Below are positions 1,433-20,966 of a DNA stretch of 64,000 bases, piece after piece. Location: the IMG/VR virus record IMGVR_UViG_3300033069_001022, positions 26,960-90,959 of that record, one strand, 5' to 3'. The notes under the pieces are model-generated. The model was not told the DNA's origin, made no database searches, and saw nothing but the letters and a program-made list of their open reading frames with translations. Both the position numbers and the translations under genes were made by a program. Origin of the DNA: a virus (taxonomy: Duplodnaviria > Heunggongvirae > Uroviricota > Caudoviricetes). Within the stretch, counting starts at the first letter, position 1; each line of letters begins with the position of its first letter.

Positions 1433-1447
1433 GGTGAGGGATGGGGG
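1433..1447 (-). promoter_or_regulatory. G-rich intergenic motif GGTGAGGGATGGGGG (C-rich on the coding strand), family copy
   Basis: Sits directly after the stop of 1448..1651 and about 56 nt upstream of the ATG at 1377. Related motifs at 2033-2045, 2617-2633 and 20948-20966. Confidence 0.35.
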
Positions 1448-1651
1448 TTACCGCTTGTTTTGCTTATTTTCCCAATGCTTAATAAAAGTTTGCTTCATTA
1501 ATTCACCGTATTCAATAGCTTCATCCTTTGTAAATTTTTCAATCGGGAAACCCTCATCAACTTTAAATCCATCTTGCCTCAACCCTGCTTCTTTTTTAAA
1601 CCGGACAAAGTTGGGCATCGTTGGCGGCAGGACTTCAAATTTCTTTTCCAT
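1448..1651 (-). CDS. hypothetical protein (67 aa)
   Basis: ORF track. The antisense ORF 1434..1670 is judged spurious. Confidence 0.45.
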   Translation of the reverse strand: MEKKFEVLPPTMPNFVRFKKEAGLRQDGFKVDEGFPIEKFTKDEAIEYGELMKQTFIKHWENKQNKR

Positions 1652-1678
1652 AATCTTATATCTGTTTTAGTATCACCT

Positions 1679-1999
1679 TTAGGGGTGAGTGGTTAAAATT
1701 CCGGCTTTAATAGCGCATCCAAAATCATGACAAGCATCATGCCCATCACAATCAGAACAAGGTTGCCAATTATCTTCTTCGTCATCTTCCGCACTCGGTA
1801 AATTTTGTAATTCAATGCTTTCTTTTTCTTGGTTTTCATAATACCTCATTCTATTGTCTGATAATTCCATTTCTTCAAAAGGAGCAATGTGTTTACAGCC
1901 AGCACATAGATAATGTCCGTCTGTTTGGCAATCTCCGCAATCGTGTTCCCAGCGTTTCATTTCAAAACAATCGCAATCTGTTCTTTTTTCGATACTCAT
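1679..1999 (-). CDS. hypothetical Cys/His-rich acidic protein (metal-binding?)
   Basis: ORF track. CDC, CGDC, CAGC, CSDCDGHDACHDFGC motifs. Confidence 0.5.
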   Translation of the reverse strand: MSIEKRTDCDCFEMKRWEHDCGDCQTDGHYLCAGCKHIAPFEEMELSDNRMRYYENQEKESIELQNLPSAEDDEEDNWQPCSDCDGHDACHDFGCAIKAGILTTHP

Positions 2000-2032
2000 A
2001 CTACTTTCTTTTATTTAACCTCCTTATTACAG

Positions 2033-2045
2033 GAGGATGGGTGAT
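2033..2045 (-). promoter_or_regulatory. G-rich intergenic motif GGAGGATGGGTGA, family copy
   Basis: Between the stop at 2053 and the ATG at 1999. Confidence 0.3.
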
Positions 2046-2052
2046 TAAATGG

Positions 2053-2229
2053 TTATCCGCCACAAGCCTCATCAACAGCATCACTTAAATCTTCACCTGC
2101 TGATGTTAATAAGTCTTTTGTGTTGTCTGGTTCATCACCTTTTACAATTGCTACTGCATCTGCAACAATAGCAACAGGCGTTAATGCAGCCTTAACAGTT
2201 GCGCTTATAATGTTTGAAAAGAATCCCAT
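2053..2229 (-). CDS. small hypothetical protein (58 aa, below the track cutoff)
   Basis: Manual translation MGFFSNIISATVKAALTPVAIVADAVAIVKGDEPDNTKDLLTSAGEDLSDAVDEACGG. GC-rich codon usage like its neighbours. Confidence 0.3.
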   Translation of the reverse strand: MGFFSNIISATVKAALTPVAIVADAVAIVKGDEPDNTKDLLTSAGEDLSDAVDEACGG

Positions 2230-2301
2230 TTTATTTATTTTTAATTGTTAGAAAATACTTTCTTTTCCACCACCACACACCAGTACGGTGTATCATGGTT
2301 G

Positions 2302-2595
2302 TTAATCTTTAGGTTGGTCATGGGGTTGGGGTTGGGGCTTATAAAATGATTTGTTGAAATAAAGTATTGCCAAGTACGGTGTATTTCCGAACCCACAAAT
2401 GCCGGTTTGTAAATTTTCGCCAAGCAAGCAGCACCATTGATTCCCGTCTTTTGATAACACAGGATTAAGTGTTGAAAACAAAGCCATTTCGTTTTTTAAT
2501 ATCAGTTCATTCATTATGGCTTCATGTTGCAAGTCAGAATAAATCCTTTCCTGCGATGCTTTATTGTAATAGTAATCTGATTCAGTCATGCTCAT
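2302..2595 (-). CDS. hypothetical protein (97 aa)
   Basis: ORF track. Confidence 0.45.
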   Translation of the reverse strand: MSMTESDYYYNKASQERIYSDLQHEAIMNELILKNEMALFSTLNPVLSKDGNQWCCLLGENLQTGICGFGNTPYLAILYFNKSFYKPQPQPHDQPKD

Positions 2596-2616
2596 ATCTC
2601 ATTTATTTAATCTCCC

Positions 2617-2633
2617 TGGGGAGTGGTGAGGGA
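2617..2633 (-). promoter_or_regulatory. G-rich intergenic motif GGGGAGTGGTGAGGGA, family copy
   Basis: Directly after the stop of 2635..3168 and 22 nt upstream of the ATG at 2595. Shares GGTGGTGAGGGA with 20948-20966. Confidence 0.35.
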
Positions 2634-2634
2634 A

Positions 2635-3168
2635 TTATTTTTTTGTACCAATTACCCGGTTAAGGGAATATGGTTTTGGATTAAAACGGTAAATCATCTC
2701 CGAATCTTGTATTATTACAGGCTCTAATGGCCTAACACCTGTTTCAATAACAATCAAATCGTACTCGTGCTTTTTAACACCTTTATTTGCATATTTCTTT
2801 TTCCAAAACAGTATATCTCGTAATTTGGATACGTTGTAATTAACGCCATTAAACTCTATGGTGTCAAATGATGGTTCCGGGCATACTCTTATATCAATTT
2901 TTACATAAGCCTCACCATTAGCATACACTTTTTTTATTACGTAATCGAAATCATTAGTGTCGCTTCTTTGTTCAATAGCGTCAATTGTGTTTTTACTTAA
3001 ATCGTATTCATCAATCGTAATATCTAGATCTGAATTAAATAAATCCCGTTTCAAATCAATTCCCCTTATCATCAATCCAATACTCCCACCTACATGTGAT
3101 GTTGGGTAGTTATCCTGAAACTCTTTCAGTGTTTTTAGTTTTAGCGATTCATAATATTTTTTTTCCAT
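2635..3168 (-). CDS. hypothetical protein (177 aa)
   Basis: ORF track. Confidence 0.5.
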   Translation of the reverse strand: MEKKYYESLKLKTLKEFQDNYPTSHVGGSIGLMIRGIDLKRDLFNSDLDITIDEYDLSKNTIDAIEQRSDTNDFDYVIKKVYANGEAYVKIDIRVCPEPSFDTIEFNGVNYNVSKLRDILFWKKKYANKGVKKHEYDLIVIETGVRPLEPVIIQDSEMIYRFNPKPYSLNRVIGTKK

Positions 3169-3217
3169 ACATTTTTAATTTTAACAGATTGCATCCGACA
3201 ATCTGGGTTAAGGAATT

Positions 3218-3466
3218 TCATTGTTTATAATTTTCGATTATTGCCTGCAGTTCAACCCGGCTCCACTTCTTTACGCCGCCCGGATTGTTTTCTAATAACA
3301 TTACTTTTTGTTCCTCATCAGAAATACTATCAAAATACTCATTCAAAATATTAAAACCCTTTTTGTATTTAGATAACTCATCTTTAAGTTTCTTAATTTC
3401 TTTATTTTGACGTTCAATAATATCTGCATTATCTCTATCGTCTGACCAATTACTTATTGTCATCAT
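3218..3466 (-). CDS. hypothetical protein (82 aa)
   Basis: ORF track. First of a chain of tightly overlapping leftward genes. Confidence 0.5.
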   Translation of the reverse strand: MMTISNWSDDRDNADIIERQNKEIKKLKDELSKYKKGFNILNEYFDSISDEEQKVMLLENNPGGVKKWSRVELQAIIENYKQ

Positions 3467-3725
3467 TATATATTTTTAATATTTCCTTAAAAGCATCAAC
3501 TAAGAATTTATGACCATGTGGACCAGTGGTATTAGCAGCTTTTCTACTATATACTTTAATAAGAGCATCTAAATCTTCTTTTGTATCACAATAAGAAGCA
3601 AGTTCAGCCCCAATAGCCATACTGGATAATCCATTCATTATTTTACCTGGATTACTCACACACCATGCTGTATAGTCATTTTTGTATTCTGCTTTTTTCT
3701 GTAAAGCTATTTCTTTTATATTCAT
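3450..3725 (-). CDS. hypothetical protein (91 aa)
   Basis: ORF track; overlapping stop/start. Confidence 0.5.
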   Translation of the reverse strand: MNIKEIALQKKAEYKNDYTAWCVSNPGKIMNGLSSMAIGAELASYCDTKEDLDALIKVYSRKAANTTGPHGHKFLVDAFKEILKIYNDDNK

Positions 3726-4072
3726 TTCTTTTGTTTTAAGTATTGAGAGAACTGAAATAGTGCTTCAAATATGGCATCTTTCTTATTTTTTCCTTCATAT
3801 CCTATAATTTGATTATAAGGTTGAGAATTAGTATCAATTTGACAATATTCTTGACATATAGTTACTGGATAACCTTGTTTTTCCAAAAAATCTATTGCTT
3901 CAAACTGCCAATTAGCATCTGAATGAAAATTTAATCCAAAAGGTGGTATAATATTAACCATTCCTTCTTTATCAGCTTTAGTATCAGATTTTACAAATTC
4001 TCCTAACATACCTTTTTTCCACCCAAGCATTTCAGCTATCTCAATATTTTTTTCAATTGTTGTCATTTCCAA
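3722..4072 (-). CDS. hypothetical protein (116 aa)
   Basis: ORF track; ATGA-type overlap. Confidence 0.5.
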   Translation of the reverse strand: MEMTTIEKNIEIAEMLGWKKGMLGEFVKSDTKADKEGMVNIIPPFGLNFHSDANWQFEAIDFLEKQGYPVTICQEYCQIDTNSQPYNQIIGYEGKNKKDAIFEALFQFSQYLKQKK

Positions 4073-4281
4073 ATATATTTACCTTTAACAATATTGTTAA
4101 CTACCTTTGGTATATCTTCTATTCCTTCTTCTTTCCAATCTGTTAAAGTTGGTATCATCCCCACTTCAAAAGCTATTGGAAATGGTTTTAATGATTGAAG
4201 GACTTGTTCCCAAGTAGGCATATCTTCTTTTTTAACAGAAGTACCTACATTCTGCACTGTACCTTCATAGAGTTCTTTCAT
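4063..4281 (-). CDS. hypothetical protein (72 aa)
   Basis: ORF track. Confidence 0.5.
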   Translation of the reverse strand: MKELYEGTVQNVGTSVKKEDMPTWEQVLQSLKPFPIAFEVGMIPTLTDWKEEGIEDIPKVVNNIVKGKYIWK

Positions 4282-4472
4282 TTTTCTGTAAGTTTTTCAA
4301 GAGTATCAATTTGGTCGTTAACTCTCACTATTTTGGAAGTAACTTCTTCTATATAAGCCTTGAATTCTTTATCAGCTACTAAATGTATATCACAACTAAC
4401 CATTAATCTAGACATCCACATTTTCTTATCCTCTTTTAACTTTTTAAGTAAAAGGTCATATTTCTTTTTCAT
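4278..4472 (-). CDS. hypothetical protein (64 aa)
   Basis: ORF track. Confidence 0.45.
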   Translation of the reverse strand: MKKKYDLLLKKLKEDKKMWMSRLMVSCDIHLVADKEFKAYIEEVTSKIVRVNDQIDTLEKLTEK

Positions 4473-4475
4473 AAT

Positions 4476-4709
4476 TTAATATATTTCAGGTTCTGAAAAT
4501 CTTTGCCCCTCTATCCATTTCCCATTAATTTGTATAACTTCAACCCAATTATTACTATTCAATTCTCGTAGTATATTTTCTACAGAATAACCATTTACTC
4601 TTGATAGACCTCTGGTATCTTCACAATTAGGGTCTATTATGTATATAGCAGTACCCTGCTTACCTACTCTAAAAGTAACTCCATTTATATTATCTTTAGT
4701 ATATCTCAT
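4476..4709 (-). CDS. hypothetical protein (77 aa)
   Basis: ORF track. Confidence 0.5.
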   Translation of the reverse strand: MRYTKDNINGVTFRVGKQGTAIYIIDPNCEDTRGLSRVNGYSVENILRELNSNNWVEVIQINGKWIEGQRFSEPEIY

Positions 4710-5314
4710 ATATCTACAGCATTTCCAACCTGTTCAGATTGTTTATTAACATTTTGTTTATAAATCTCAATAAACGGCTGAAAAGATTTTTCTCTTAAGT
4801 ATCTCTCTGAATTAGGGATAAAACTTAACTGATTTTTACCTTCTTTAAAAGATAAATCTTTTGCCATTTGTATATGATACTCTGTTGCATTAATTATATC
4901 ATCAGCAGTAAAACCTTCATTGATATACTTATTAAATAACTGTCTGCACTCAGTCTTCTTTATTCTCTTACTCTGTGTACCTTTAAAAGTCTTGTTTTTA
5001 TACAGAAACATATTTGATGCAGGATAAGTCACCCACCATTTCTCAAAATCATTGGTCTTTAATTTCTTAACAATTTCTTTGGGATTCTCATCGTTTTCTA
5101 TATAAGATAATAATTCATCTCCCGACATAGTAACTTGATTATCTTCTGTTACAAGCTGTTTCCTCAATAACATCTGATTAATAGCTCCAATTTTAGGAAG
5201 AAGAATAGCATCTGTTATATCTACTTTATCTTTAATAAGTTTTAACAAGTATAATATATCCAATGAAAATCCTGCATTAAGTACTTTTATGTATTTTTCT
5301 AATGTTATATTCAT
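4706..5314 (-). CDS. hypothetical protein (202 aa)
   Basis: ORF track. Confidence 0.55.
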   Translation of the reverse strand: MNITLEKYIKVLNAGFSLDILYLLKLIKDKVDITDAILLPKIGAINQMLLRKQLVTEDNQVTMSGDELLSYIENDENPKEIVKKLKTNDFEKWWVTYPASNMFLYKNKTFKGTQSKRIKKTECRQLFNKYINEGFTADDIINATEYHIQMAKDLSFKEGKNQLSFIPNSERYLREKSFQPFIEIYKQNVNKQSEQVGNAVDI

Positions 5315-5622
5315 TTACAGGTTTTTAGTATTTTTTTCATTTTATCAACTCTAAATTGTAAGCAATCAATAATTTCAGCTTTACTAGTTACCTCATTGGG
5401 ATAAGTATGCCAATAGAAATTATCTGTTTTTTCTCTATTTACCCATGCTTTATTATATATGCTTACATTAAAATTGGCATCAGTCACAGTACATATTCCC
5501 ATTCCACAATTATGATTATCAACAATTCTAAGTATCTCTCTATAGTCTTTAACAGGTTTTATTTCACGTAAAACTAAGTTATATTTTCTAATTAGTTTTG
5601 TTAAGATTTCTTTCTTTGTCAT
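5311..5622 (-). CDS. hypothetical protein; paralog of 17656..18033 (shared C-terminal F/YRVDKMKxxL)
   Basis: ORF track. C-terminus IIDCLQFRVDKMKKILK compares with AIEALQYRVDKMKQLLEKY. Confidence 0.5.
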   Translation of the reverse strand: MTKKEILTKLIRKYNLVLREIKPVKDYREILRIVDNHNCGMGICTVTDANFNVSIYNKAWVNREKTDNFYWHTYPNEVTSKAEIIDCLQFRVDKMKKILKTCK

Positions 5623-5770
5623 AAATTAAACAATTTTATAAATTTCCTTTTATAACCACTATTATTGAACCATAAGAGTACTTCTTTTTCAGTAGTAATG
5701 TCTATATTTGGTTCAAATACAATAATGGTAGCAACTATAATAGCTATTAATATAATTAAAACTAACATGG

Positions 5771-6019
5771 TTAAATATTTTTATTCCATAAAATACCAGA
5801 AAAGGTTTTTACAGTATGTTTTTGAATAAAATTAAAATAAGCTCTGGATGGTGTATAATTATACCCACCATGTAAATTCTTTCTGATACGTTTTTTAGCA
5901 TCTTGTAATTCACAATTATTGCGATTATTGGCAAGTTTTCTAAAAAACCCAGGTTCGCCTACTTTTGGTTTAGGAAAATCTTTGTAATTAGAGGATTGAT
6001 AAACAAGTTGATATTTCAT
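5771..6019 (-). CDS. hypothetical basic protein (82 aa)
   Basis: ORF track. Confidence 0.45.
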   Translation of the reverse strand: MKYQLVYQSSNYKDFPKPKVGEPGFFRKLANNRNNCELQDAKKRIRKNLHGGYNYTPSRAYFNFIQKHTVKTFSGILWNKNI

Positions 6020-6038
6020 GGCATTAAGTTTAAATTAT

Positions 6039-6350
6039 TTAATAAATTTCATAAGCTCTTATTTGAGTGGCTTTTACGGGTCCATTATTTCTTATATAGT
6101 CCTCTATTTCATAGGATGTGGCAAATCTGACTCTCATTTTACCATGACTCTCCTTATTCTCTTCCGTGTCACTTATTGTCCAACCATTTCCTGTAGAACT
6201 GTTTAAATCTTTCTCCACACGAAAACAATTCCAATCAAAATCATCTCTTAATCGGTATACATAATCTATTGGCATACAATTTGCCCAAAGATCTATCTCA
6301 TTTATGCAGTTACTTAACAGTACTACATAATCTCCTTTAATAAATTTCAT
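6039..6350 (-). CDS. YEIY-tail small-protein family member
   Basis: Starts MKFIK. Ends ...ATSYEIEDYIRNN...RAYEIY. The junction tATGAAATTTATTAA holds the upstream gene's YEIY-stop overlapping this gene's ATG. Confidence 0.55.
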   Translation of the reverse strand: MKFIKGDYVVLLSNCINEIDLWANCMPIDYVYRLRDDFDWNCFRVEKDLNSSTGNGWTISDTEENKESHGKMRVRFATSYEIEDYIRNNGPVKATQIRAYEIY

Positions 6351-6672
6351 ATTGATAAATTTGATAGTTTAAAAAATTATCCTCTTTAAAACGACTAAAT
6401 GGTATTATTTCAAAACCATTTTTACTATAATAGTGATCATGATTATTTTCTGTATGACATAATGCTGAGCTGTGTACATCGTAAATACCTACAATATAGT
6501 TATTTCTAAGTTTAACTGGAACGGATTGTGTGACTTTTGAACATTTTAGTGCTCCAAATCTTAATTCTTCTCTGGCTTCTCCCAACATATGAATAACTTC
6601 TAGTTGTTCTTCTACTGTATTACAGTTAACTGCTACCTTATTATTAGCCACATATTCCTTAGTATATTTCAT
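6337..6672 (-). CDS. YEIY-tail family member (start trimmed to MKYTKEY; the track ORF extends to 6840)
   Basis: Ends ...YQYEIY. Its ATG lies inside the YEIY-stop of 6659..6904. Confidence 0.5.
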   Translation of the reverse strand: MKYTKEYVANNKVAVNCNTVEEQLEVIHMLGEAREELRFGALKCSKVTQSVPVKLRNNYIVGIYDVHSSALCHTENNHDHYYSKNGFEIIPFSRFKEDNFLNYQIYQYEIY

Positions 6673-6904
6673 ATTCAATAATTTCTTTTTGGTTATAAAC
6701 TTTTTTAAATTCTTCAAAAGAGATTTCTTTATAACGTCTTTGTTTTCCAAGAAATATACACTTATTATTACATAAAGGATAATGATAATAATAATAGTCA
6801 CCCTCATAGGAAGAACAAATAGAAAAATAGTTTCTTCCAATTAATTTTGTAAAGAATTTATTCATTTCTGGAATATTTCCCACTCTTTTAATACAATATT
6901 TCAT
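6659..6904 (-). CDS. YEIY-tail family member
   Basis: MKYCIKR...EIIEYEIY. Confidence 0.55.
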   Translation of the reverse strand: MKYCIKRVGNIPEMNKFFTKLIGRNYFSICSSYEGDYYYYHYPLCNNKCIFLGKQRRYKEISFEEFKKVYNQKEIIEYEIY

Positions 6905-7154
6905 ACATATTTAGTTTAAAATCTTCAAAACTACTTTTTAATCCACCTTTTACAGCCTCAAAATACTGTATTTCATGATAATCAGCCAATCTGTGGTTTG
7001 TAAAAGAAAATAATGGTTGCTTATTACCAATTTTACCATTTTTTATCCTCATAGGTACGCCCTCTATTTCTTCCTCAGAATCTTTTATGTTATAGACTAT
7101 AAAATTATCAAAACTATATTCCACAAAATAGTAAGTATTTTTAATATATTTCAT
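6888..7154 (-). CDS. YEIY-tail family member (start trimmed to MKYIKNTYY)
   Basis: Ends ...NMYEILY. Its ATG overlaps the YEIY-stop of the next gene upstream. Confidence 0.5.
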   Translation of the reverse strand: MKYIKNTYYFVEYSFDNFIVYNIKDSEEEIEGVPMRIKNGKIGNKQPLFSFTNHRLADYHEIQYFEAVKGGLKSSFEDFKLNMYEILY

Positions 7155-7406
7155 AAACAATTGCTTTATTAAATAATTTAATTTCTTCTGGTGTAGCTTC
7201 TTCAAATGTCCAATCATTTTTAAAATGATGTAATCTATTTTTACTAGGTTTTCTATATCTACCTTCACTTTGATAAATACAATCACCATAAAAAATATCT
7301 GATTTAGAAGCTTCTTTAGTAAAATGAATTACCCATCCCCATCAAAAAATCCAGAACCAAACCAGCATCTATAGTATTTTCCTATAACTAAATCAGTATA
7401 TTTCAT
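7141..7406 (-). pseudogene. YEIY-tail family member interrupted by a frameshift in a G4 run (plus-strand cccc at 7337-7340)
   Basis: MKYTDLVIGKYYRCWFGSGFFDGDG-stop, then in another frame ...WVIHFTKEASKSDIFYGDCIYQSEGRYRKPSKNRLHHFKNDWTFEEATPEEIKLFNKAIVYEIY-stop. One extra G restores a single 88-aa family member. Confidence 0.45.
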
Positions 7407-7599
7407 AACTTGTAATATTTTGAGGTATAGAAATAATTTTCCAATTTCCTGTATTTAACCTTCTCAAAGTTTCATCTATTCTCCAACCAATTGCTTCTTT
7501 ATCAAAAAATATCTTATCTTTGACAATCTTCGTTATTGTATGATTAGTTGCTATTTTTATAATAGTACCAATTACAATGTCTGTATTAGTATATTCCAT
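7393..7599 (-). CDS. YEIY-tail family member
   Basis: MEYTNTDIVIGT...NITSYEIY. Its N-terminus resembles the frameshifted neighbour (TDLVIGKYY vs TDIVIGTII). Confidence 0.55.
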   Translation of the reverse strand: MEYTNTDIVIGTIIKIATNHTITKIVKDKIFFDKEAIGWRIDETLRRLNTGNWKIISIPQNITSYEIY

Positions 7600-7840
7600 A
7601 GATATCTTCTTTATTTAAATCTGCATAATTACAATAGAACTTATAATGTAATTTCATATACTTTATATCAGTACAATAAGTTCCATCAGCAGCAATAGTA
7701 GTTTCCGGGAGTTGAAAATGAGATTTACTTAAATAGAGTGGATTAAATTCTTTCAAAAAACTCGTAAAATCATCTATATTATTAAATACAATATAGTGTT
7801 TTTCATCACTTTTAAATTCTTCAATAGATTTCATAATCAA
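7586..7840 (-). CDS. YEIY-tail family member (divergent tail ...EDIYGIY)
   Basis: ORF track; junction overlap. Confidence 0.5.
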   Translation of the reverse strand: MIMKSIEEFKSDEKHYIVFNNIDDFTSFLKEFNPLYLSKSHFQLPETTIAADGTYCTDIKYMKLHYKFYCNYADLNKEDIYGIY

Positions 7841-8096
7841 TTATTTTAATTTTTTGATATTTTCCAAATTTTTCACAAGCTTCAAGCTGTAAAATTTCTT
7901 CTTGGGTAGGTAATCTTAGATTAGAAAATAATGCTGAACCAAAAGTACTATTTTTAGCGTATCTATCTGATTCTCTAGTAAACATTGCTAATCTTGTTAA
8001 ATATTTATCACCTCCGCCAGACCTAAATATATAAGGTTCTTTTCCTTCTCCATAAGTAGTATAAATATTTCCTGGTATTAAATCTTTTAATGTCAT
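7821..8096 (-). CDS. YEIY-tail family member (KDLIPGNIY N-terminal motif, PTQEEILQLEACEKFGKY, ...DYEIY)
   Basis: Shares N-terminal and C-terminal motifs with 13462..13713, 9886..10149 and 9260..9502. Confidence 0.55.
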   Translation of the reverse strand: MTLKDLIPGNIYTTYGEGKEPYIFRSGGGDKYLTRLAMFTRESDRYAKNSTFGSALFSNLRLPTQEEILQLEACEKFGKYQKIKIIDYEIY

Positions 8097-8112
8097 GAGT
8101 GTATTATTTTAA

Positions 8113-8150
8113 AAATAATAACCCCTTACAATTAAGTAAGGGGTTATTAT
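8113..8150 (-). terminator. rho-independent terminator-like hairpin
   Basis: Perfect inverted repeat AATAACCCCTTAC/GTAAGGGGTTATT, followed on the minus strand by a T-rich run. Sits just after the stop of 8163..8630. Confidence 0.55.
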
Positions 8151-8162
8151 CAATTAAAGAAA

Positions 8163-8630
8163 TTAAGAGAAAATATCCATGATATTCCTCATACTTGCCT
8201 GGAACTTCTGTTCTCCACTCAGGTTTTCTTCCAGAAGTTTCTTAGCTTCTTTCAGTTTAGCCAGTTTAGATTCAAAAGTGGTAGCCCTGTACTGTGCTAC
8301 AATTTCTTCCTGCCATACTTTCAAACCATGGCCACCTTCAGTAAAGCCTTTCAGCTTGGTTAAAGGATCAATTGCCTGAAATACAGATGAGAATTCATCA
8401 TAAGCTGCTGCTTTCCTGCTGATAAAAGCATAGGCATCCATTAAACGGGCAGGGTCCTTAATATCGGAAACTATCCCAAATGCTCCCAAAGGGGTGGTTA
8501 TCTTAGCAGCCCTCTCTTTGTCGCCTTCCAAATCTTTAATCTTCTGATTAACTTGAGCCAATAATTCAGGTACATTTTCTAATGTAAATTGTCCTGCTGT
8601 TGCTACTTCCATGTTTTTTACTTTTGACAT
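8163..8630 (-). CDS. hypothetical protein (155 aa), Ala/Lys-rich with higher GC
   Basis: ORF track. The antisense ORF 8179..8379 is judged spurious. Confidence 0.55.
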   Translation of the reverse strand: MSKVKNMEVATAGQFTLENVPELLAQVNQKIKDLEGDKERAAKITTPLGAFGIVSDIKDPARLMDAYAFISRKAAAYDEFSSVFQAIDPLTKLKGFTEGGHGLKVWQEEIVAQYRATTFESKLAKLKEAKKLLEENLSGEQKFQASMRNIMDIFS

Positions 8631-8648
8631 TTTGTTTTGTTTTAATTA

Positions 8649-8897
8649 TTAATAATAAAATTCTTGATTTAAATTTTCATCTAATATAATTAGATCTTCT
8701 CCTATTTTATAACAATTGTTATGTCTCTTATTATCCCATAAAACTGAATAAGTAATATCATCATCATAACCATCTATAGTACCTTTAATATTTAAAGGAT
8801 TACTACTATCAGGGTCATTTGATCCATAACCAGCATATTGAGATGTAGGATTTAACAATACTCTTGTTCCAATTGGAATTTCATTTTCTTTCTTCAT
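8649..8897 (-). CDS. hypothetical small protein (ends ...QEFYY)
   Basis: ORF track. Confidence 0.5.
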   Translation of the reverse strand: MKKENEIPIGTRVLLNPTSQYAGYGSNDPDSSNPLNIKGTIDGYDDDITYSVLWDNKRHNNCYKIGEDLIILDENLNQEFYY

Positions 8898-8912
8898 ATA
8901 TGGTTTATTTGT

Positions 8913-13097: not shown

Positions 13098-13189
13098 TGT
13101 TTTTTAGTTAATTAAAATTGGTTTATGTATATGTGTTTCTACTTCCCAAACATCACATTCAGGACAGTAGATAAGATCTGTTATCATAA

Positions 13190-13459: not shown

Positions 13460-13461
13460 TT

Positions 13462-13713: not shown

Positions 13714-13714
13714 A

Positions 13715-14062
13715 TTAATAAATTTCAGGTGAATTAAATATTATTGGAATATATTGAGGACCATCTTCTCCCTTTTTAGCAGCCCAGTATCCTTGTTTAT
13801 AAACTAAACCAATGCCTCTTCCCCACACACATAGAGTATCTGCTTTTTCATCATAATGAAATCCTTCATCTTGTATATTACTAGAAGGTAGTGACATATT
13901 TACTTTTGGACTACCTACTCTATTATTACCGTCATAAGCCATAAATTCTCCTTCTAAACAGGTAATTTTTTCCTCCTCTACATATCTTTTTCTTAAAATT
14001 TTAAGTAATTTATCAATTTTCTGTTGCATAATTTTATTTTTAGTGATCTGGATTGGATTCAA
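13715..14062 (-). CDS. YEIY-tail family member (...NSPEIY); true start may be the internal MQQKIDKL at about 14029 because the annotated 5' end overlaps the tRNA-like gene
   Basis: ORF track. Confidence 0.5.
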   Translation of the reverse strand: MNPIQITKNKIMQQKIDKLLKILRKRYVEEEKITCLEGEFMAYDGNNRVGSPKVNMSLPSSNIQDEGFHYDEKADTLCVWGRGIGLVYKQGYWAAKKGEDGPQYIPIIFNSPEIY

Positions 14063-14117
14063 ACCAATGACCCACGGTTTAGAGGACCGTTGCTCTGTTC
14101 TGCTGAGCTACCAGACC
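14044..14117 (-). tRNA. tRNA-like gene, anticodon UCU (Arg) if functional; non-canonical D-loop (no GG), C33, T-loop TTTGAAT; no encoded CCA
   Basis: Manual fold: GGTCTGG/CCAGATC acceptor (7 bp, one GU), D stem GCTC/GAGC, anticodon stem ACGGT/ACCGT with loop CCTCTAA, T stem ATTGG/CCAAT. Confidence 0.45.
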
Positions 14118-14247
14118 ATTGGTTTCTAATAATTACCAGAAAGATATGTCTCAAGACATTCTTCCCTTAATTCTTCTTCCATTTTAAGAAGTTCTTCTTC
14201 AGTGTAATCAATTTCCGACATGATATAATTTTTTAAAATGAAAAATA

Positions 14248-14283
14248 AGGTGACTCCCACCCCTTTTACAGGATGAGAGTCCA
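14248..14283 (-). promoter_or_regulatory. conserved 5'-UTR hairpin motif (copy 1): GTGACTCCCAC...ATGAGAGTCCAC
   Basis: Same architecture as 18397-18430 (stem GTGA(A)CTC, loop beginning CCAC and ending ATGA, stem GAGT(T)CAC). About 25 nt upstream of a minus-strand start. Confidence 0.4.
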
Positions 14284-14290
14284 CCATACA

Positions 14291-14488
14291 CTAAAATTTT
14301 CTTACTGTTACTACAACGTATTTACAGTATTTCCTGAGAAAATCAATTTTTCCCTTACTACGGATACCTATATCATTCTTAGCAGAATTTCCTGTTAAAA
14401 CTGATACAATACCATTAGAGATCTGGATGTCATGTTTTTTCTTAAGTTGTACTACAACTTCATGCTCTACATAATTACGAGTTTTCAT
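14291..14488 (-). CDS. hypothetical basic protein (65 aa)
   Basis: ORF track. Confidence 0.45.
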   Translation of the reverse strand: MKTRNYVEHEVVVQLKKKHDIQISNGIVSVLTGNSAKNDIGIRSKGKIDFLRKYCKYVVVTVRKF

Positions 14489-14780
14489 TGTTTTTGTTTT
14501 TTATATTAATAATGTTTTTGAATTCTCTAATGTATACTATTAACTCTTTATTCACAGCATAAGCCAGAGTCTTGCGTAATCTATAATAGTCTACATATAG
14601 AGAATAGTTATTTAGCAGATACAACCCATTCCTAAATATTTTTGCTTCTTACAATGCTGACATTCGTGCAGCTCTGACCAACAAATTATTTCTCCTTCCA
14701 TAGGATTAGGTGTTGAATTTGTATCAATATTTTTCCATTTATGAAATCCAAAGAAACATAATATTTTTCTCATAATATAT

Positions 14781-14799
14781 TTAGATTTAATTAGTTAAA
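14781..14799. repeat. direct repeat TTAGATTTAATTAGTTAAA (copy 1; copy 2 at 15128-15146)
   Basis: Exact 19-nt match seen by eye. Confidence 0.6.
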
Positions 14800-15043
14800 G
14801 AACCCTATGAAGAGGTACAAAATAACTACTTCCCACTTCATTATCTACATCAAGAACAGCCTCATCTTCAAACCAATCTTCCTCCATAAGATCTTGACTT
14901 TCAGGCCATAGTACAAGAACATAAGACTCTCTTATATTAGAAAGTAATGAAAATACCTCAGGAGTATCTTTCTGATTTATATCTTCTCTATCGTCTATGG
15001 CTTGGCCAATGGCCTCCATTGCTTTATCAAAATTTGTTATCAT
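14795..15043 (-). CDS. hypothetical acidic protein (82 aa)
   Basis: ORF track. Confidence 0.45.
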   Translation of the reverse strand: MITNFDKAMEAIGQAIDDREDINQKDTPEVFSLLSNIRESYVLVLWPESQDLMEEDWFEDEAVLDVDNEVGSSYFVPLHRVL

Positions 15044-15127
15044 TTTATTAGTTTTAAAAATTTAAAAATAGAGATTTTACACGCTAGATTTCTCCTACTA
15101 CCTTCAACCATTTGTGATGGTTTATTC

Positions 15128-15146
15128 TTAGATTTAATTAGTTAAA
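15128..15146. repeat. direct repeat TTAGATTTAATTAGTTAAA (copy 2)
   Basis: Exact match to 14781-14799. Lies in the 600-bp non-coding gap 15060-15670. Confidence 0.6.
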
Positions 15147-15670
15147 AAAATAAAGACTACCCACTTCCCCCATATTGCTACAAGAGATATATGATTTTTT
15201 TAGGGTAGTCTTTAAAAGGTTTAAAAGATAACTGGGATAAAGCATGGCAAAACCCTAATACCAATTTTGATTTTTTTAGTTATCTAAGAAGTTTAAAGGA
15301 AGAGCTATTCAATCATTAGATATTTTCAGGAGACTAACAATTTATTCACTCTTCCTAGGCATCATCTTTGGTTATCTTACTCTATTTCAGATGTACAGTA
15401 TGATGTTATTACCTACTTGTACATAGCTATAATAGAGTTGGAAACCAGATTCGACTTGGTTGGTATTACTACCCATCTATCATAACTATAATTGAGAAAT
15501 GACCTTGTCCAGGTAGTCATAGTTAACATTTGACTGTAAGTTTCTAAACTTAATAGGTAAAAGCTTCTTTCGATAGCATAACTTCCTATTGCACCCCAAT
15601 TTCGGTTATTAACATTTTTTGATAAGGTACACAGTAGAAGTCCAAAGTGGAGACTACCATGTACCTGTGA

Positions 15671-16309
15671 TTACAATTTATTATATAATTCTAAAGCTTT
15701 TTCTGCCTCATTTCTTGTAAATGTTATACAACCTATTTTCCAGGATTGTGAACTAAGAGTGTAACCATCTAGTATGTATTGAGGTCTAAAAGTAATAAGT
15801 AAAGAAGTATAAGACATAATATGTCCTTCAAAATGAAAGCCTGTCTTATCAATTCTAATTGTTTTACCACAAGCAAGTCCCAATTCATATGAAGATGGTT
15901 TATCTTCTTCATATACAGGTTCAAAAAATAAGTCAAGAACTCCTAATTCTTTGGCTTTGTTATAGGTATTACTATTTTTTTGAAAACATATTTCAGGAGT
16001 TAGAAAATAATTACAGCTTAGTAAAGAATAAGCTTGTTGAGCAGTGATTTTACCATTAAGTTTATATCCTATGAGTTTCTTTCCCTCTTTAGGAAAAACA
16101 ATATCAAAGAATTTTGTTGCAGAAATTACCAAACCACTTCCTGTAAAACACCCCTTCCAATGTTCTTCTTCTCCTAAATAAAAAGTAGCACTTCCCCTTG
16201 GTAAGGTTCTTTCTGGATAGATTTTTCCCATTATTGCAATAAGTTTATCAACATTATTGTTTTCAATGATAAATAAACCTTTTTTGAAGTTTTCGATTGA
16301 ATAAGTCAT
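15671..16309 (-). CDS. hypothetical protein (212 aa)
   Basis: ORF track. Confidence 0.5.
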   Translation of the reverse strand: MTYSIENFKKGLFIIENNNVDKLIAIMGKIYPERTLPRGSATFYLGEEEHWKGCFTGSGLVISATKFFDIVFPKEGKKLIGYKLNGKITAQQAYSLLSCNYFLTPEICFQKNSNTYNKAKELGVLDLFFEPVYEEDKPSSYELGLACGKTIRIDKTGFHFEGHIMSYTSLLITFRPQYILDGYTLSSQSWKIGCITFTRNEAEKALELYNKL

Positions 16310-16314
16310 TTGTT

Positions 16315-16545
16315 TTAAGTTAAGGTGTTATAAATATGTATAGCATCTTCCAGGTTAAGGGAAAAACCCACTCTTCTGATATGTTCTTCTCCCAATGATG
16401 TACCATTATATATTTCATAAAGGTAATTTACTTGACCATCACTACTTATAGTAATAGTCAGAAATAACTTTTTCCCTCCAGAAACATGGGAATCTTCACC
16501 AAATAATATTTGATGAGTTTTTCTTGTCAAATTAGCTAAAATCAT
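16315..16545 (-). CDS. hypothetical protein (76 aa)
   Basis: ORF track. Confidence 0.45.
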   Translation of the reverse strand: MILANLTRKTHQILFGEDSHVSGGKKLFLTITISSDGQVNYLYEIYNGTSLGEEHIRRVGFSLNLEDAIHIYNTLT

Positions 16546-16569
16546 GATAATGCTATTTAAAGGTGATTT

Positions 16570-16821
16570 CTAATATTGTTCAGGAATAATTAATAATTTA
16601 TTCCACTCTTCAATCATATGTTGAGCTAACTCTGATTTTTCAATAGCTGTAAATTCTCTTGACCTCTCTTTACCCTGTTCATCTATATAATCCACATAAA
16701 CTTGATCTCCATCTCTATCACAAACATTTAGATCAGGGTCTAAAGTAAAAGGAGTATAATCAGTGTATAATGTACCACCTGTCGAAAAAACAAGGCATCC
16801 ATCATTATTTGTTTTTAACAT
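16570..16821 (-). CDS. hypothetical acidic protein (83 aa)
   Basis: ORF track. Confidence 0.45.
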   Translation of the reverse strand: MLKTNNDGCLVFSTGGTLYTDYTPFTLDPDLNVCDRDGDQVYVDYIDEQGKERSREFTAIEKSELAQHMIEEWNKLLIIPEQY

Positions 16822-16832
16822 AATAAATTTAT

Positions 16833-17255
16833 TTAAAGATCAGTTAATTTTATTCCAATTGCAGTTTCCATTTTAGGAACCCATTCTCTATCAAATGTAC
16901 AATTCCATACATTTTTATTCTTCAAAGCTTTTAAAACAAATTTAGGATCTTCAATGCAATGATATTTTGCATAATGACTAATATCTACGACACCTTTACA
17001 ATCCACATATTTATTCTCAATTTGTAAAAAAGCATGACTACATGAACTTATTGAAGTATGTATACCTTTAAAATATGCCTCATTAGTTTCATAAGCATCT
17101 GATAACCAACTATAAGCAAAAACAATTTTCACTTTTACTTTTGGTTTGTATACTTTTAACCATTGATACATAAATAATGTAGCATAACCACATCCACCAT
17201 AACTTATATATGGTATTTTATTAAGGTAACTTCTTAATTGTTTAAAATTTTTCAT
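16833..17255 (-). CDS. hypothetical protein (140 aa) with conserved Cys/His (YGGCGY...CSHAF); possible thiol peptidase-like fold
   Basis: ORF track. Motif read by eye only. Confidence 0.45.
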   Translation of the reverse strand: MKNFKQLRSYLNKIPYISYGGCGYATLFMYQWLKVYKPKVKVKIVFAYSWLSDAYETNEAYFKGIHTSISSCSHAFLQIENKYVDCKGVVDISHYAKYHCIEDPKFVLKALKNKNVWNCTFDREWVPKMETAIGIKLTDL

Positions 17256-17256
17256 A

Positions 17257-17652
17257 TTATAAAAACATGGATGATATATCCTTTTGGTTTACAATTGATT
17301 CTTTTTTAAAAACTATTTGATAAGGTGATTCATAGTAATCCGTTACATCCAACATAAGTACTTGAAAACCAAGGACTTCAATACATTCTTTAAGTTCTTC
17401 CCTGGTTAAAGCTGTTTCAAGTTGAGCAAGGTCTTTAAATGCAAAATTGTATTGTTGCACATCTTCCCAAGATATTTGACAATTTAACTGAGTGTCATTA
17501 CAATATGTCGGATATAAATTAGAATTAGCGTGTCTTTCTGCTATATCATCATACTTTGAATGTTTTGCTAACAATGGTTCCGCTTCTTTAAAAGTTCTCC
17601 ATAAACCCAAACCATTAGAAGGATGCTGAATTCTAATAATATTGTGTCTCAT
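17257..17652 (-). CDS. hypothetical protein (131 aa)
   Basis: ORF track. Confidence 0.5.
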   Translation of the reverse strand: MRHNIIRIQHPSNGLGLWRTFKEAEPLLAKHSKYDDIAERHANSNLYPTYCNDTQLNCQISWEDVQQYNFAFKDLAQLETALTREELKECIEVLGFQVLMLDVTDYYESPYQIVFKKESIVNQKDISSMFL

Positions 17653-17655
17653 AAC

Positions 17656-18033
17656 TTAATATTTTTCAAGTAATTGTTTCATTTTATCTACCCTGTATTG
17701 TAAAGCTTCAATAGCACCATGTCTGTTATAACATCTCATAGGAGGCCTAAACCAAAACTTATAATATATATTGGGTACTTTCTTAATCCACTTTTTTAAC
17801 TTTGGTGGTATACCTTTTATATCTAAATAATAACATAATCCACCATGTACTCCATTTGTATGCATTAACATATACCAATCATCTGTTACTTCAGCTATCT
17901 GAATTACATCTTCGTAGTGTTTAATACAACCTTGAATTACTTCTTTTTCTTGCTTGGATAATCCTGATTTTGTGGATAACCGCCAAGTAAAAAAAACTAC
18001 AGCTATAGCTGAAAATATAATATATAGTATCAT
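17656..18033 (-). CDS. hypothetical protein with N-terminal TM helix; paralog of 5311..5622
   Basis: Shared C-terminal YRVDKMKQLLEKY. Confidence 0.5.
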   Translation of the reverse strand: MILYIIFSAIAVVFFTWRLSTKSGLSKQEKEVIQGCIKHYEDVIQIAEVTDDWYMLMHTNGVHGGLCYYLDIKGIPPKLKKWIKKVPNIYYKFWFRPPMRCYNRHGAIEALQYRVDKMKQLLEKY

Positions 18034-18148
18034 TGTTTTTATTTTAATATTGTTCAGGAATGGGATAAAAATGGTTAAAAATCATTAATATATTATTTTA
18101 AAAATAAATTCCTGCTCATCAATTAAGACAAACAGGAGTTCACAATTA

Positions 18149-18367
18149 CTATTTTGAATTAAAATTCTCATCAAAACAATCATTAAAAATTGCTCCCCAA
18201 ACAGTACATCCTAAAATTATCATAGGCATTAAATGGGCAGGAGATTGTAATACACTAACAAATTCTCCTCCAAATAACCATGATATTGAAGGGATTATCA
18301 ATAAAGTAAATATCATTAACAATATAAATATTATTGCTAACAAAGTAAAACGAAATAATTTTTCCAT
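18149..18367 (-). CDS. small membrane protein (start trimmed to MEKLFRFTLLAIIF...)
   Basis: The track ORF 18149..18430 begins with GTG inside the hairpin. The ATG at 18367 is followed by a hydrophobic helix. Confidence 0.45.
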   Translation of the reverse strand: MEKLFRFTLLAIIFILLMIFTLLIIPSISWLFGGEFVSVLQSPAHLMPMIILGCTVWGAIFNDCFDENFNSK

Positions 18368-18396
18368 TTTTATTAGTTTTTTAGTGTTGGTTAAAA

Positions 18397-18430
18397 GTGA
18401 ACTCCCACAAACTAAACCATGAGAGTTCAC
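18397..18430 (-). promoter_or_regulatory. conserved 5'-UTR hairpin motif (copy 2): GTGAACTCCCAC...ATGAGAGTTCAC
   Basis: 8-bp perfect stem GTGAACTC/GAGTTCAC, about 30 nt upstream of the ATG at 18367. Confidence 0.4.
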
Positions 18431-18550
18431 AAATTATTATTTACAATATTCAGAAATATCAGGACAAGAATGATAATCCCACCACTCAATACCATCATAT
18501 TCCCCTCTATCTGCCCATGTACCATCTTTAAACCAAATAGTTCCAAAAAG

Positions 18551-18781
18551 TTACTGTATACCATAACCATCATTATAACCAAAGTCTAATTCTGACAGGA
18601 ATTTATCCAAATCTCCTGTATTAAAATTCTCTTTAAGTGCTATTATTGGAACATCATCCAAAGTAGGGTTATATTCAACTTCAGCACATTTCAGTTTTTC
18701 TATCCCTATTCTGTTAACAAGAGATAAAAATTCAGTTTTTGCATTCATAACAAATAATTTTAATTGTGACCCAATAATCAA
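18551..18781 (-). CDS. hypothetical protein (76 aa)
   Basis: ORF track. Confidence 0.4.
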   Translation of the reverse strand: MIIGSQLKLFVMNAKTEFLSLVNRIGIEKLKCAEVEYNPTLDDVPIIALKENFNTGDLDKFLSELDFGYNDGYGIQ

Positions 18782-19247
18782 TTAGTTATATGTCCAGCGA
18801 ATGGAATAGTCAGACTCTATTATGTTTCCACTCTCTATAACTAATTAATTATTAACGCCTTGCACTTAACACATATTTCATCCACTGTTGCAAGCCAGTT
18901 ATATTATAAATTCGGTGAGACTATCCTGGTGACTCATAAATTCAATCATATCATCTTCATCACAATAAGCATATTCATCACAATAAGCATAATGACACTC
19001 ACCTGATTCATCAACTGTATTGTTGCCACAGTTAGGGCATTTGCTATGATATATTGTACCGGTATTCATGATATAATAATTTAATTGGTTTTGTAGATTG
19101 ATAATAAAATAAGGCTGCTAATCCATCATAAGCCCGACATATTAAGTTAGTATAGTTGTCAAAAGACTTCTATTGAATACCTCAACAATTTAAGAGGCCA
19201 ACTAATTAATGTTCATCTTATAATATAGCACTTGTAGCACCTTATTT

Positions 19248-19454
19248 TCAAGATTTTAAAGGTAAGGGGTAATCTTCCCAACTCCAAATATTCTCTCCAT
19301 ATTCCACATCCTCTATAAATGGAACTTTAATAGTATTACTATAAAGACTTATAATGATAATCTTATCACCCCTCTCTAATTCTTCATACATATCAGGAAA
19401 GTTACCTAAGTATTTCACAGTTTTATTCTGTGTTTTATTAATAATTAAATACAT
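19248..19454 (-). CDS. hypothetical protein (68 aa); last leftward gene before the control region
   Basis: ORF track. Confidence 0.4.
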   Translation of the reverse strand: MYLIINKTQNKTVKYLGNFPDMYEELERGDKIIIISLYSNTIKVPFIEDVEYGENIWSWEDYPLPLKS

Positions 19455-19488
19455 TGTAATGCTATTTAAGGGTTAATTTATTGATATT

Positions 19489-19507
19489 CGATAAATATTT
19501 ATTAGTA
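19489..19507. promoter_or_regulatory. palindromic operator-like site CGATAAATATTTATTAG (core ATAAATATTTAT)
   Basis: Core palindrome repeated at 20038-20049. Confidence 0.35.
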
Positions 19508-19560
19508 GTCAACATATGGCAAAGGAATAGATAATCTATTGATTATCAATTAATTATAAA

Positions 19561-19605
19561 TAATATAGCTAGGTACACATCTACAATAAACCTAGCTATA
19601 TTATT
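19561..19605. repeat. perfect 15-bp inverted repeat ATAATATAGCTAGGT / ACCTAGCTATATTAT with a 15-nt loop
   Basis: Seen directly; reverse complements match exactly. Confidence 0.8.
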
Positions 19606-19960
19606 AACATATTCCAGGTAACACCAGTCTATATGTTAGAACCTTAGGATAATCTTAATTTGTTAAGCATTATCTGCTTCAGGAAAGTCATGACCTAGTT
19701 ATTCCACTAAATTTTGTCATCATAACTTATATCCTTAGTATCTCAGGACAGAATGAATATTTGCAGGAGTATTTCCTGTAATATATCCTTGACTGCTATA
19801 ACATACTAATTAGAACTATATGCTATAATATACTCTTTACAATGATAAGTTAATAACCCACGACAGATTATCAGAGCTTATTTATTAGAGCTTATACTAC
19901 TTATTCATGACTAAGTAATACGGATACAACCTATCTCTTAATGCTATTTAAGTACTAAAG

Positions 19961-20000
19961 TTGATTGATTTACATTGTTTGATTAAATTGTTATTAAACC
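19961..20000. repeat. cluster of TTGATT/TTGTT iteron-like repeats (TTGATTGATTTACATTGTTTGATTAAATTGTTATTAAACC)
   Basis: Seen in the long non-coding stretch. Confidence 0.35.
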
Positions 20001-20034
20001 ATAGATGTGTTTACTCCACCTCTTTTATCGTTAT

Positions 20035-20052
20035 TCAATAAATATTTATTGA
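20035..20052. promoter_or_regulatory. perfect 18-bp palindrome TCAATAAATATTTATTGA (operator-like)
   Basis: Self-complementary. Shares the ATAAATATTTAT core with 19489-19507. Confidence 0.45.
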
Positions 20053-20356
20053 TAATTAATCTAATGTATGTCCATTATCAATATCTTTCCACATTATTGG
20101 AAGTAATATAGCTGCTTCAATGAATAATAATATAATAAGTATCTGTCCCATAGCTAAAAATTATAATATGTTATAATTAATTGATTTATAATACATTACA
20201 AAATCCTTAGTATGGTTTCAAAGCCGTAGGATACAAAGAAAAATAGGGTGAGATATAGATTATTTGAACTATATGGAACTTATTAGTCCCTTTCAAGCTC
20301 TCAACAAAAGTATATAGCCCACCCTAAGTTGTTATTTACAACCCACCCAGATATAT

Positions 20357-20390
20357 AAAAGAAAGAGAGTAACCGAAGTTACTCTCTTTC
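20357..20390 (-). terminator. terminator hairpin after the stop of 20397..20882
   Basis: AAAGAGAGTAAC cgaa GTTACTCTCTTT, followed by T-rich sequence on the minus strand. Confidence 0.55.
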
Positions 20391-20396
20391 AATTAA

Positions 20397-20882
20397 TTAT
20401 GCTGCAACCAGTTCACTGGTAAAAGCAATGGTTTGAATACCAGTTGCCTCTCCTGGAGCATTGGGGCTTAAAACCACAAACTTTTTACCTTCTTCAGTTT
20501 TACCTGCATAAACGTAAGTGTCTTCAGAGTCAAAGGTTTCAGTAACCCAAGCCTGTACAACAGGACTGTTCTTGGTAATAGCAGCTTTGGCTTGCTTATT
20601 ATCCGGAGTGACAGCTAATACTTTGGCTGCATTATTCAGTGCCTCAGCAGCATCTTGAACAGCCTTCGGAACATCAATACCTGCTTTAGTAGCAGTAGTT
20701 GGCAACAACTTCATTGCAAACCTTTCGTTGGTAGTGCCATTTACCAAAGCCATTCTCCACGCATCATACAGGAAATACAGTTGTACACCATTGGGCTTTA
20801 CATCATTTATGATGTCTTCTTTTGTAAAATTCACGATGTTAGTAGCCCGTACACCGCTTAAAAACTCTTTAGTGTTAAACAT
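20397..20882 (-). CDS. hypothetical Ala-rich protein (161 aa), higher GC
   Basis: ORF track. The two antisense plus-strand ORFs are judged spurious. Confidence 0.5.
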   Translation of the reverse strand: MFNTKEFLSGVRATNIVNFTKEDIINDVKPNGVQLYFLYDAWRMALVNGTTNERFAMKLLPTTATKAGIDVPKAVQDAAEALNNAAKVLAVTPDNKQAKAAITKNSPVVQAWVTETFDSEDTYVYAGKTEEGKKFVVLSPNAPGEATGIQTIAFTSELVAA

Positions 20883-20947
20883 TGTTTTTAAATTTAAATA
20901 TCAATTAATAAGTTAATGACGGGGATAACACCCATCCACAAATTATA

Positions 20948-20966
20948 GAGGGGGTGGTGAGGGAGG
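20948..20966 (-). promoter_or_regulatory. G-rich motif GAGGGGGTGGTGAGGGAGG plus small hairpin GAGGG/CCCTC in the divergent region
   Basis: About 66 nt upstream of the ATG at 20882. Family with 1433, 2033 and 2617. Confidence 0.35.

Follow-up and report, generated by a model that had tools for sequence, protein, structure and literature searches.

A conserved candidate early-control element and variable intergenic hairpin cassettes in a crAss-like phage

We analyzed short G-rich sites ahead of leftward genes in a 64-kb stretch of a crAss-like phage genome of about 120 kb (IMG/VR virus record IMGVR_UViG_3300033069_001022). This stretch is hereafter called the window, and all window counts refer to these 64 kb. 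The account that we favor, though only tentatively, has two parts: a conserved early control element at 20913-20998, and accessory hairpin cassettes in the intergenic spacers of a strain-specific array of small genes, with no promoter family extending across the genome. An initial annotation had grouped four G-rich sites (at 1433, 2033, 2617 and 20948) together; their sequences and coordinates are correct, but they comprise two different things, and the 2033 site, which lacks the word GGTGAGGGA, is only loosely related to the others. From the anatomy, conservation, copy number and mosaic structure reported below, we infer every functional step that we propose.

Results

A conserved element between the leftward and rightward genes

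About 60 small genes, a tRNA and a permuted transfer-messenger RNA (tmRNA) run leftward from 20882, and from 21053 the terminase, portal, capsid and tail genes are read rightward. This map agrees with that of Cellulophaga phage phi14:2, in which the early genes form the block opposite the capsid genes and a virion-packaged RNA polymerase transcribes them (10.1101/2020.03.07.982082). To judge by this arrangement, the leftward block consists of early genes of the phi14:2 type. In gene-sense order, the element upstream of this block is composed of a TATCTATGGG box, a GAGGG...CCCTC hairpin, a C-box (CCTCCCTCACCACCCCCTC), an A/T-rich linker (TATAATTTG) and a hairpin (GGGTGTTATCCCC). On the + strand it reads as GGGG-loop-CCCC (hairpin H1), an A/T-rich linker of 13-18 nucleotides (nt), a G-rich box, a small hairpin, CTCATAGATA and TTTTCAAAAA.

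Relatives were collected via their terminase; about 44 kb was compared for the closest relative and one locus of 12-23 kb for each of the others. The core of the element is almost identical in the closest relative, where the flanking genes are replaced or only 35% identical. A simple pattern search found the element once in each of eight further loci, in which terminase identity is as low as 43%; in phi14:2 it lies between g111 and g110. A profile hidden Markov model (HMM) built from nine lineages identified one site per phage (E 3e-10 to 3e-17), in constant orientation relative to the leftward block, and no other site better than E = 2.5, with the accessory sites undetected even at E <= 100. 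The box, which reads (G)GTGGGG(G/T)TGTGAGGG(A/T)GG in the relatives, also occurs once per relative in the compared DNA. The G and C tracts of H1 are kept in nine of nine lineages, with a variable loop.

The distance from H1 to the first leftward ATG is 33-39 nt in six lineages, 67 nt in phi14:2 and 175 nt in locus L021, and in locus L022 no leftward gene lies within 400 nt of the hairpin; in the window the ATG at 20882 is 38 nt beyond H1. The rightward promoter lies 67-296 nt from the hairpin. Because the first of these distances is tight in six lineages and the second is variable, the element goes with the first early gene. A canonical intrinsic terminator closes that gene, and therefore a one-gene unit lies behind the element.

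We propose that the element most likely controls this first early transcription unit, as its promoter or leader region. The invariant G and C tracts of the element could fold into either of two hairpins that exclude each other: in gene sense, the GGGG in the center is able to pair with the C-box upstream or with the CCCC downstream. Consensus folding yielded only invariant G-C pairs, and because all pairs in the element are of this kind, folding cannot separate an RNA from a DNA structure. A search of 20850-21070 against Rfam 15 gave nothing above noise, and a promoter and terminator scan called the element as neither. In some lineages the linker resembles the -7 box of Bacteroidota sigma promoters (TTTG at -33 and TAnnTTTG at -7) and of the middle promoters of phi14:2, for example as TATTTTTG in locus L020 and as the near-match TATAATTTG in the window. 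Unlike those promoters, however, the element at copy F has no -33 TTTG, at least three lineages lack the -7-like box or have a degenerate form of it, and none of the accessory sites has it.

Two observations concern the surroundings of the element. In the closest relative (locus L017), a 42-bp insertion directly after it (3665-3706) adds another TAnnTTTG box (TATCTTTG) on the strand of the rightward genes. In the window, paired GGGTGGG boxes 13-17 nt apart (TATATA-N-GGGTGGG...GGGTGGG) occur on the gene-sense strand at 20310-20352 (-), directly after the terminator of the first leftward gene, at the opening of a non-coding stretch of 942 nt (19455-20396). This pair is kept in five lineages (also L017 at about 3035-3057, L027 at about 2911-2933, L021 at about 6720-6740 and L029 at about 921-942). 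In phi14:2, long stretches of non-coding DNA close to the beginning of the early block are strongly transcribed (10.1101/2020.03.07.982082), and by analogy the pair may mark the start of a similar long non-coding RNA.

Copies of the repeated word

The word GGTGAGGGA occurs exactly on the + strand at 1433, 2625 and 20956, compared to an expectation of 0.16, and three or more copies were found in none of 100 shuffles. An 11-mer, GTGGTGAGGGA, is common to the copies at 2625 and 20956, and TCCCTCACC is common to copies A, E and F (Table 1). Copy E is identical to the C-box of copy F at 14 of 16 positions. The copy at 2033-2045 (GGAGGATGGGTGA) has only CCCATCC and CCTGTAWTAWGG in common with the 1433 site. 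The repeated word alone is weak evidence, because 21 GC-rich 9-mers are present at least three times in the window compared to 7 in shuffles; 15 GC-rich 11-mers also recur. The actual signal lies in the placement of the three exact copies, each of which is intergenic and points the same way, antisense to leftward genes, in a sequence of which an estimated 9-17%, based on the gap list, is intergenic.

The sites at 1433, 2033, 2617/2625 and 20948 are 55, 33, 21 and 65 nt from the downstream ATG, in agreement with the 20-70 nt given in the initial annotation. Its placement of every site between a stop codon and the next start holds for the first three, but not for 20948-20966, which has no leftward gene upstream and occupies the divergent region that separates the leftward from the rightward block. 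The idea that the sites form a recurrent family was not borne out. Once mismatches were allowed, a motif search of the window showed no enrichment beyond the exact copies (6 found compared to 5.7 expected, and 8 compared to 6.5) and no further intergenic copies. The mismatched matches at 35801 and 54998 are inside open reading frames (ORFs; 35211-36191 and 51730-55272), and none is ahead of a leftward gene. Together with the single box per relative and the failure of the profile HMM to recognize the other sites, this leaves the suggestion of a phage promoter or factor site partly intact: non-coding cis elements do precede leftward genes, and one of them belongs to a conserved control region, but there is no recurrent family serving a gene subset.

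Table 1. Positions in the window of the features discussed in the text
Feature	Position	Strand	Basis
Candidate conserved early-control element, about 85 nt, containing copy F	20913-20998	-	profile HMM 20998-20913, E 2.8e-17; alignments
C-box of the element (G-rich on the + strand), fourth copy of the initial annotation (copy F)	20948-20966	-	sequence search
Hairpin H1, GGGG-loop-CCC(C)	20921-20933	.	alignments of nine lineages
Host-type (Bacteroidota) promoter TTTG-N19-TATCTTTG, rightward block	21018-21048	+	box search
Canonical intrinsic terminator closing the first leftward gene	20361-20390	-	terminator scan
GC-richer accessory segment, holding copies A-E and G and the word in coding sequence	1-3450	-	GC 0.33-0.38 vs 0.27-0.30 in the rest of the leftward block
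Copy A: CCCCCATCCCTCACC right after stop 1448-1450, loop TGTATTAT, G-arm GGTAGAGTG	1416-1447	-	sequence, folding
Copy B: CCACTCACCCC-TAA-AGGTGA, 5-bp hairpin over the stop of ORF 1679-1999; new here	1673-1692	-	
Copy C, divergent: TCACCCATCCTCC, loop TGTAATAA, GGAGG; CCCATCC and CCTGTAWTAWGG as in copy A, without GGTGAGGGA	2020-2045	-	
Copy E: TTCCCTCACCACTCCCCAGGGAG right after stop 2635-2637	2612-2634	-	sequence
Copy G: AACCTCCCGTTTTAAACCGGG, small hairpin across the stop codon, then an 18-mer common to the copy A spacer; new here	318-346	-	
Related word in coding sequence: GCCTCCCATCCCCAGGGAATG; new here	187-207	-	sequence
Leader module 1 (GGCATAAAACATATACAA), directly before the ATG at 300	300-317	-	100% duplicate of 1381-1398
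Leader module 1, second exact copy (18-mer), 3 nt before the ATG at 1377	1381-1398	-	
Leader module 2 (GGAGGTTAAATAAAAGA), downstream of copy C	2007-2023	-	88%, 15/17 vs 2599-2615
Leader module 2, second copy (GGAGATTAAATAAATGA), downstream of copy E	2599-2615	-	

Hairpin cassettes in the accessory segment

The accessory sites lie at the left end of the window, in the segment of higher GC content listed in Table 1. Synteny with the closest relative extends from window position 14356 down to 3452 and is followed by complete divergence. Segment 1-3450 is unmatched in the 20.6-kb syntenic locus of the closest relative (L024) and has no DNA or protein counterpart in the compared DNA of the relatives, and for none of the 12 ORFs tested from 322-3466 do the related loci contain a homologue. 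Genes 1679-1999 and 2302-2595 have homologues in unrelated phages, where the motif is absent; several of these contexts have C-rich spacers after stop codons.

The accessory spacers follow a common plan, in which a C-rich arm 0-12 nt past the stop codon is followed by an A/T loop, a G-rich arm and an A/T-rich stretch leading to the ATG. They are mosaics of short duplicated modules, including the two leader modules in Table 1. The related word in coding sequence at 187-207 has TCCCCAGGGA in common with copy E and CCCATCC in common with copies A and C.

We suggest that these short hairpins in the strain-specific array of small genes (1433, 2033, 2625, 318-346 and 1673-1692) are not promoters but act in cis on the polycistronic early RNA, where they would be stem-loops for 3'-end formation, processing or insulation, each standing ahead of an unstructured A/T-rich start region. 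The 9-11 nt that they have in common with the conserved element would most likely reflect common descent or recombination.

Like intrinsic terminators, the accessory hairpins have a C-rich 5' arm and a G-rich 3' arm right after stop codons, and the true terminators of this phage and a relative share this C-then-G polarity, one in the relative using a CCCTCAC arm. Unlike them, the accessory hairpins have short stems (5-6 bp in B and C, bulged in A, 4-5 bp in E) and no U-tract, the tails being TGATTTAT, TTAAATAA and ATTAAATA. The terminator scan made no gene-strand call at 300-2700, compared to 17 sites on both strands of 1-20000, mostly on the gene strand. TAnnTTTG does not occur on the gene strand below 4077, and hence at none of the accessory sites. 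A sigma-70-type promoter (TTGACA-N16-18-TATAAT) was called at no site; copy F has TATAAT without a -35 box.

Translation control, also proposed in the initial annotation, was rejected: GGAGG/GGGAG at copies C and E is 18-21 nt from the ATG, compared to the 5-10 nt expected of a Shine-Dalgarno (SD) sequence or an SD-sequestering hairpin, and SD sequences are generally absent ahead of the genes of this phage. A G-quadruplex score from our own G4Hunter-type implementation is 1.24-1.56 at copies A, E and F, but the box scores below 1.2 in L021, L022, L029 and phi14:2 and does not appear to be conserved as a G-quadruplex. There is no general excess of C over G in the spacers.

Two sets of spacers elsewhere were observed alongside those of the window. 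Just past the end of synteny, L024 has a spacer of 228 nt (14694-14921) that starts with TCCCCACC and ends with GGTGAGAGGGGATGG in gene sense; the latter is a G-rich word like that of copy A in the opposite orientation, and contig L023 ends inside this spacer. Three unrelated Bacteroidota-type contigs with homologues of gene 1679-1999 (L003, L013 and L014) have long spacers of 70-300 nt, where a repeated element of their own (AACG.T...GGCTTTGCG...) comes straight after stop codons.

Discussion

In crAss-like phages, an unusual polymerase packaged in the virion carries out early transcription, and no motif common to the regions upstream of early transcripts was found in a study of phi14:2 (10.1101/2020.03.07.982082). 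Our search of the literature on crAss-like early promoters found nothing beyond that study (10.1101/2020.03.07.982082). An element present in a single copy is missed by motif searches within one genome; comparison across genomes does detect it. The element described here, located directly upstream of the first early gene and conserved from the phage in the window to phi14:2, is a concrete candidate of about 85 nt that could be tested in the existing phi14:2 system. The significance of the accessory hairpins is more modest: what they suggest is that crAss-like phages, like T4-type phages, assemble their variable early regions from small cassettes whose spacers are duplicated.

For these cassettes, the closest known parallel appears to be the promoter-early stem-loops (PeSLs), reportedly described by Arbiol et al. 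in 2010 as mobile regulatory cassettes of the hyperplastic regions of T4-type phages. In both cases, short repeated stem-loop cassettes lie in the spacers between small novel early ORFs, modules are mixed in mosaic fashion, and the segment varies among close relatives; in the window there is a stem-loop in each spacer, and the spacers have modules in common. In contrast to PeSLs, the cassettes in the window have no recognizable host-type promoter, and their family is tiny (5-6 sites), with similarity limited to 9-18 nt and no recombination products observed.

The conserved element invites a different comparison. The virion RNA polymerase of coliphage N4 uses hairpin promoters, of which there are three similar ones. 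Here, too, a virion-packaged polymerase is involved, the phi14:2 enzyme uses single-stranded or denatured DNA (10.1101/2020.03.07.982082), and a small conserved hairpin with a G/C stem, GGGG-loop-CCCC in all nine lineages, lies just upstream of the first early gene, 33-39 nt from its ATG in six of them. Unlike in N4, however, there is one element per genome and the loops are 3-6 nt long instead of a fixed 3, and the two polymerases are unrelated. A promoter family of the T7 or N4 kind, with several extended copies, was not found: each phage has one element, and only 9-11 nt recurs within the 64 kb. By this analogy, 20913-20998 could be the early promoter or entry site for the virion RNA polymerase of Flavobacteriia-type crAss-like phages, recognized through an extruded DNA hairpin, with 1433 and 2625 as additional starts acquired later. 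We regard this more specific proposal as quite unlikely.

Several points weigh against the two-part account that we favor. The promoter, leader and RNA-hairpin roles are all inferred, and the stems of the element never vary, leaving no covariation to show pairing. Small GAGGG/CCCTC hairpins are present, as the initial annotation stated, but those of copies A, B, C and E are weak, and their stability mostly does not exceed that of shuffled sequence (z -0.2 to -1.7). The match of copy E to copy F (14 of 16 positions, within AT-rich intergenic DNA) might just as well represent a functional box reused at E and A, and the genome to the left of window position 1 may hold more copies.

Functional reuse could mean that the C-box (TCCCTCACC...) is a recognition module for the virion RNA polymerase or an early factor, and that 1433 and 2625 are extra start or operator sites for accessory early genes. 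The three exact 9-mers, all intergenic, in one orientation and 21-65 nt before an ATG, would fit such a module, as would the fact that one of them belongs to the conserved region ahead of the first early gene. In addition, no early promoter is yet established in this phage group, and because the accessory segment has no host-type promoter, its genes need either another signal or read-through. We nevertheless consider this explanation, the main alternative, unlikely: relatives carry the box only once in the compared DNA, the sites have the box alone in common and neither the hairpin nor the linker, the distances to the A/T hexamer and to the ATG differ greatly from site to site, and allowing mismatches removes the enrichment. 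At the other extreme, the similarity between accessory sites and element could be due to chance or be a neutral scar of recombination, with the accessory hairpins having no sequence-specific function. Recurrent GC-rich 9-mers and 11-mers are common in the window, a related word lies within coding sequence at 187-207, and the hairpins are not unusually stable. A scan of viral contigs for TCCCTCACCACNCCCC, a pattern that fits copy E and not copy F, gave 26 matches in unrelated, mostly GC-rich contigs, which are the only places in which the E-type 16-mer was found. Chance or a neutral scar is a rather improbable explanation, however, for three of three exact copies falling in the small intergenic fraction of the sequence, for the other duplicated modules that the spacers have in common, and for the consistent placement of the sites 0-12 nt past stop codons.

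The remaining explanations concern DNA-level signals and host factors. The conserved element could be a replication origin or a packaging or terminus signal, given its location at the minimum of the cumulative GC skew and about 6 kb upstream of the terminase gene, its invariant G/C tracts without covariation, and the long A/T runs that adjoin it. Yet the skew minimum is uninformative, because it coincides with the switch in gene direction; there are no iterons; and the tight link of 33-39 nt to the first leftward ATG, compared to 67-296 nt to the rightward promoter, better suits a role in gene expression, so that we find a DNA-level site very unlikely. Least plausible, to the point of being highly improbable, is that the C-rich, G-poor tracts after stop codons are loading sites for host Rho, similar to rut sites, that impose polarity between cistrons. 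Tracts of 15-19 nt such as CCCCCATCCCTCACC are conspicuous in RNA with about 12% C, but known rut regions are far longer, complementary G-rich arms come right after the tracts, the spacers have no overall excess of C over G, and the early block may not be transcribed by the host polymerase at all. A conserved early control element accompanied by accessory cis-acting hairpins remains, tentatively, the account that we prefer.

Other features of the window

The window, with a GC content of about 30%, belongs to a crAss-like phage with a Bacteroidota-type host. The major capsid gene (33576-35126) matches the Pfam family Crass_capsid, and the terminase (27058-29133) and portal (29130-31730) match crAss-type PHROGs. 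TTTG-N19-TAnnTTTG, the promoter type of Bacteroidota, precedes several rightward genes. The box type found at 21018-21048 also precedes g110 of phi14:2, whose promoter is one of four mapped middle promoters; the middle and late genes of that phage use host-type promoters (10.1101/2020.03.07.982082).

The leftward block was unmatched in a megablast search against known phages, and no loci related to genes 20397-20882 and 1099-1377 were found among viral contigs. Gene 2635-3168 has a single non-syntenic related match, which lacks the motif. Pfam and PHROGs gave no functional information for the neighboring small proteins; 2635-3168 corresponds to one PHROG, the function of which is not known. 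Across the whole window, only the tRNA and the permuted tmRNA matched Rfam 15 at the gathering score. The permuted tmRNA gene, at 11112-11327 (-) inside the leftward block, scored 65 bits with RF04321 compared to a gathering score of 47, and ARAGORN made no call for it. The tRNA is a tRNA-Arg (anticodon TCT) at 14043-14117 (-).

Within the accessory segment, a homopolymer at 895-904 consists of 10 G in the window (10 C on the coding strand, in ORF 843-1199) and has a length of 12 in contig L002, which is otherwise 99.9% identical. The difference changes the reading frame and could result from slippage, phase variation or an assembly error. At 322-670 (-), two overlapping ORFs lie in different frames, the first with a DPPW motif; neither has a Pfam match, and inspection by eye suggests a DNA methyltransferase that a frameshift has divided in two. 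No other sequence in the window reaches the G-quadruplex score of GGGGTTGGGGTTGGGG at 2322-2337 (2.12), which lies within ORF 2302-2595 and encodes PQPQP near the C-terminus. Finally, the terminase of the closest relatives (L015, and L017 at 10001-13099) is one continuous ORF of about 1030 codons, compared to 691 in the window. Outside the extra stretch the terminases of the window and of these relatives are 97% identical, which suggests that the longer ORF contains an intein-like insertion of about 1 kb.

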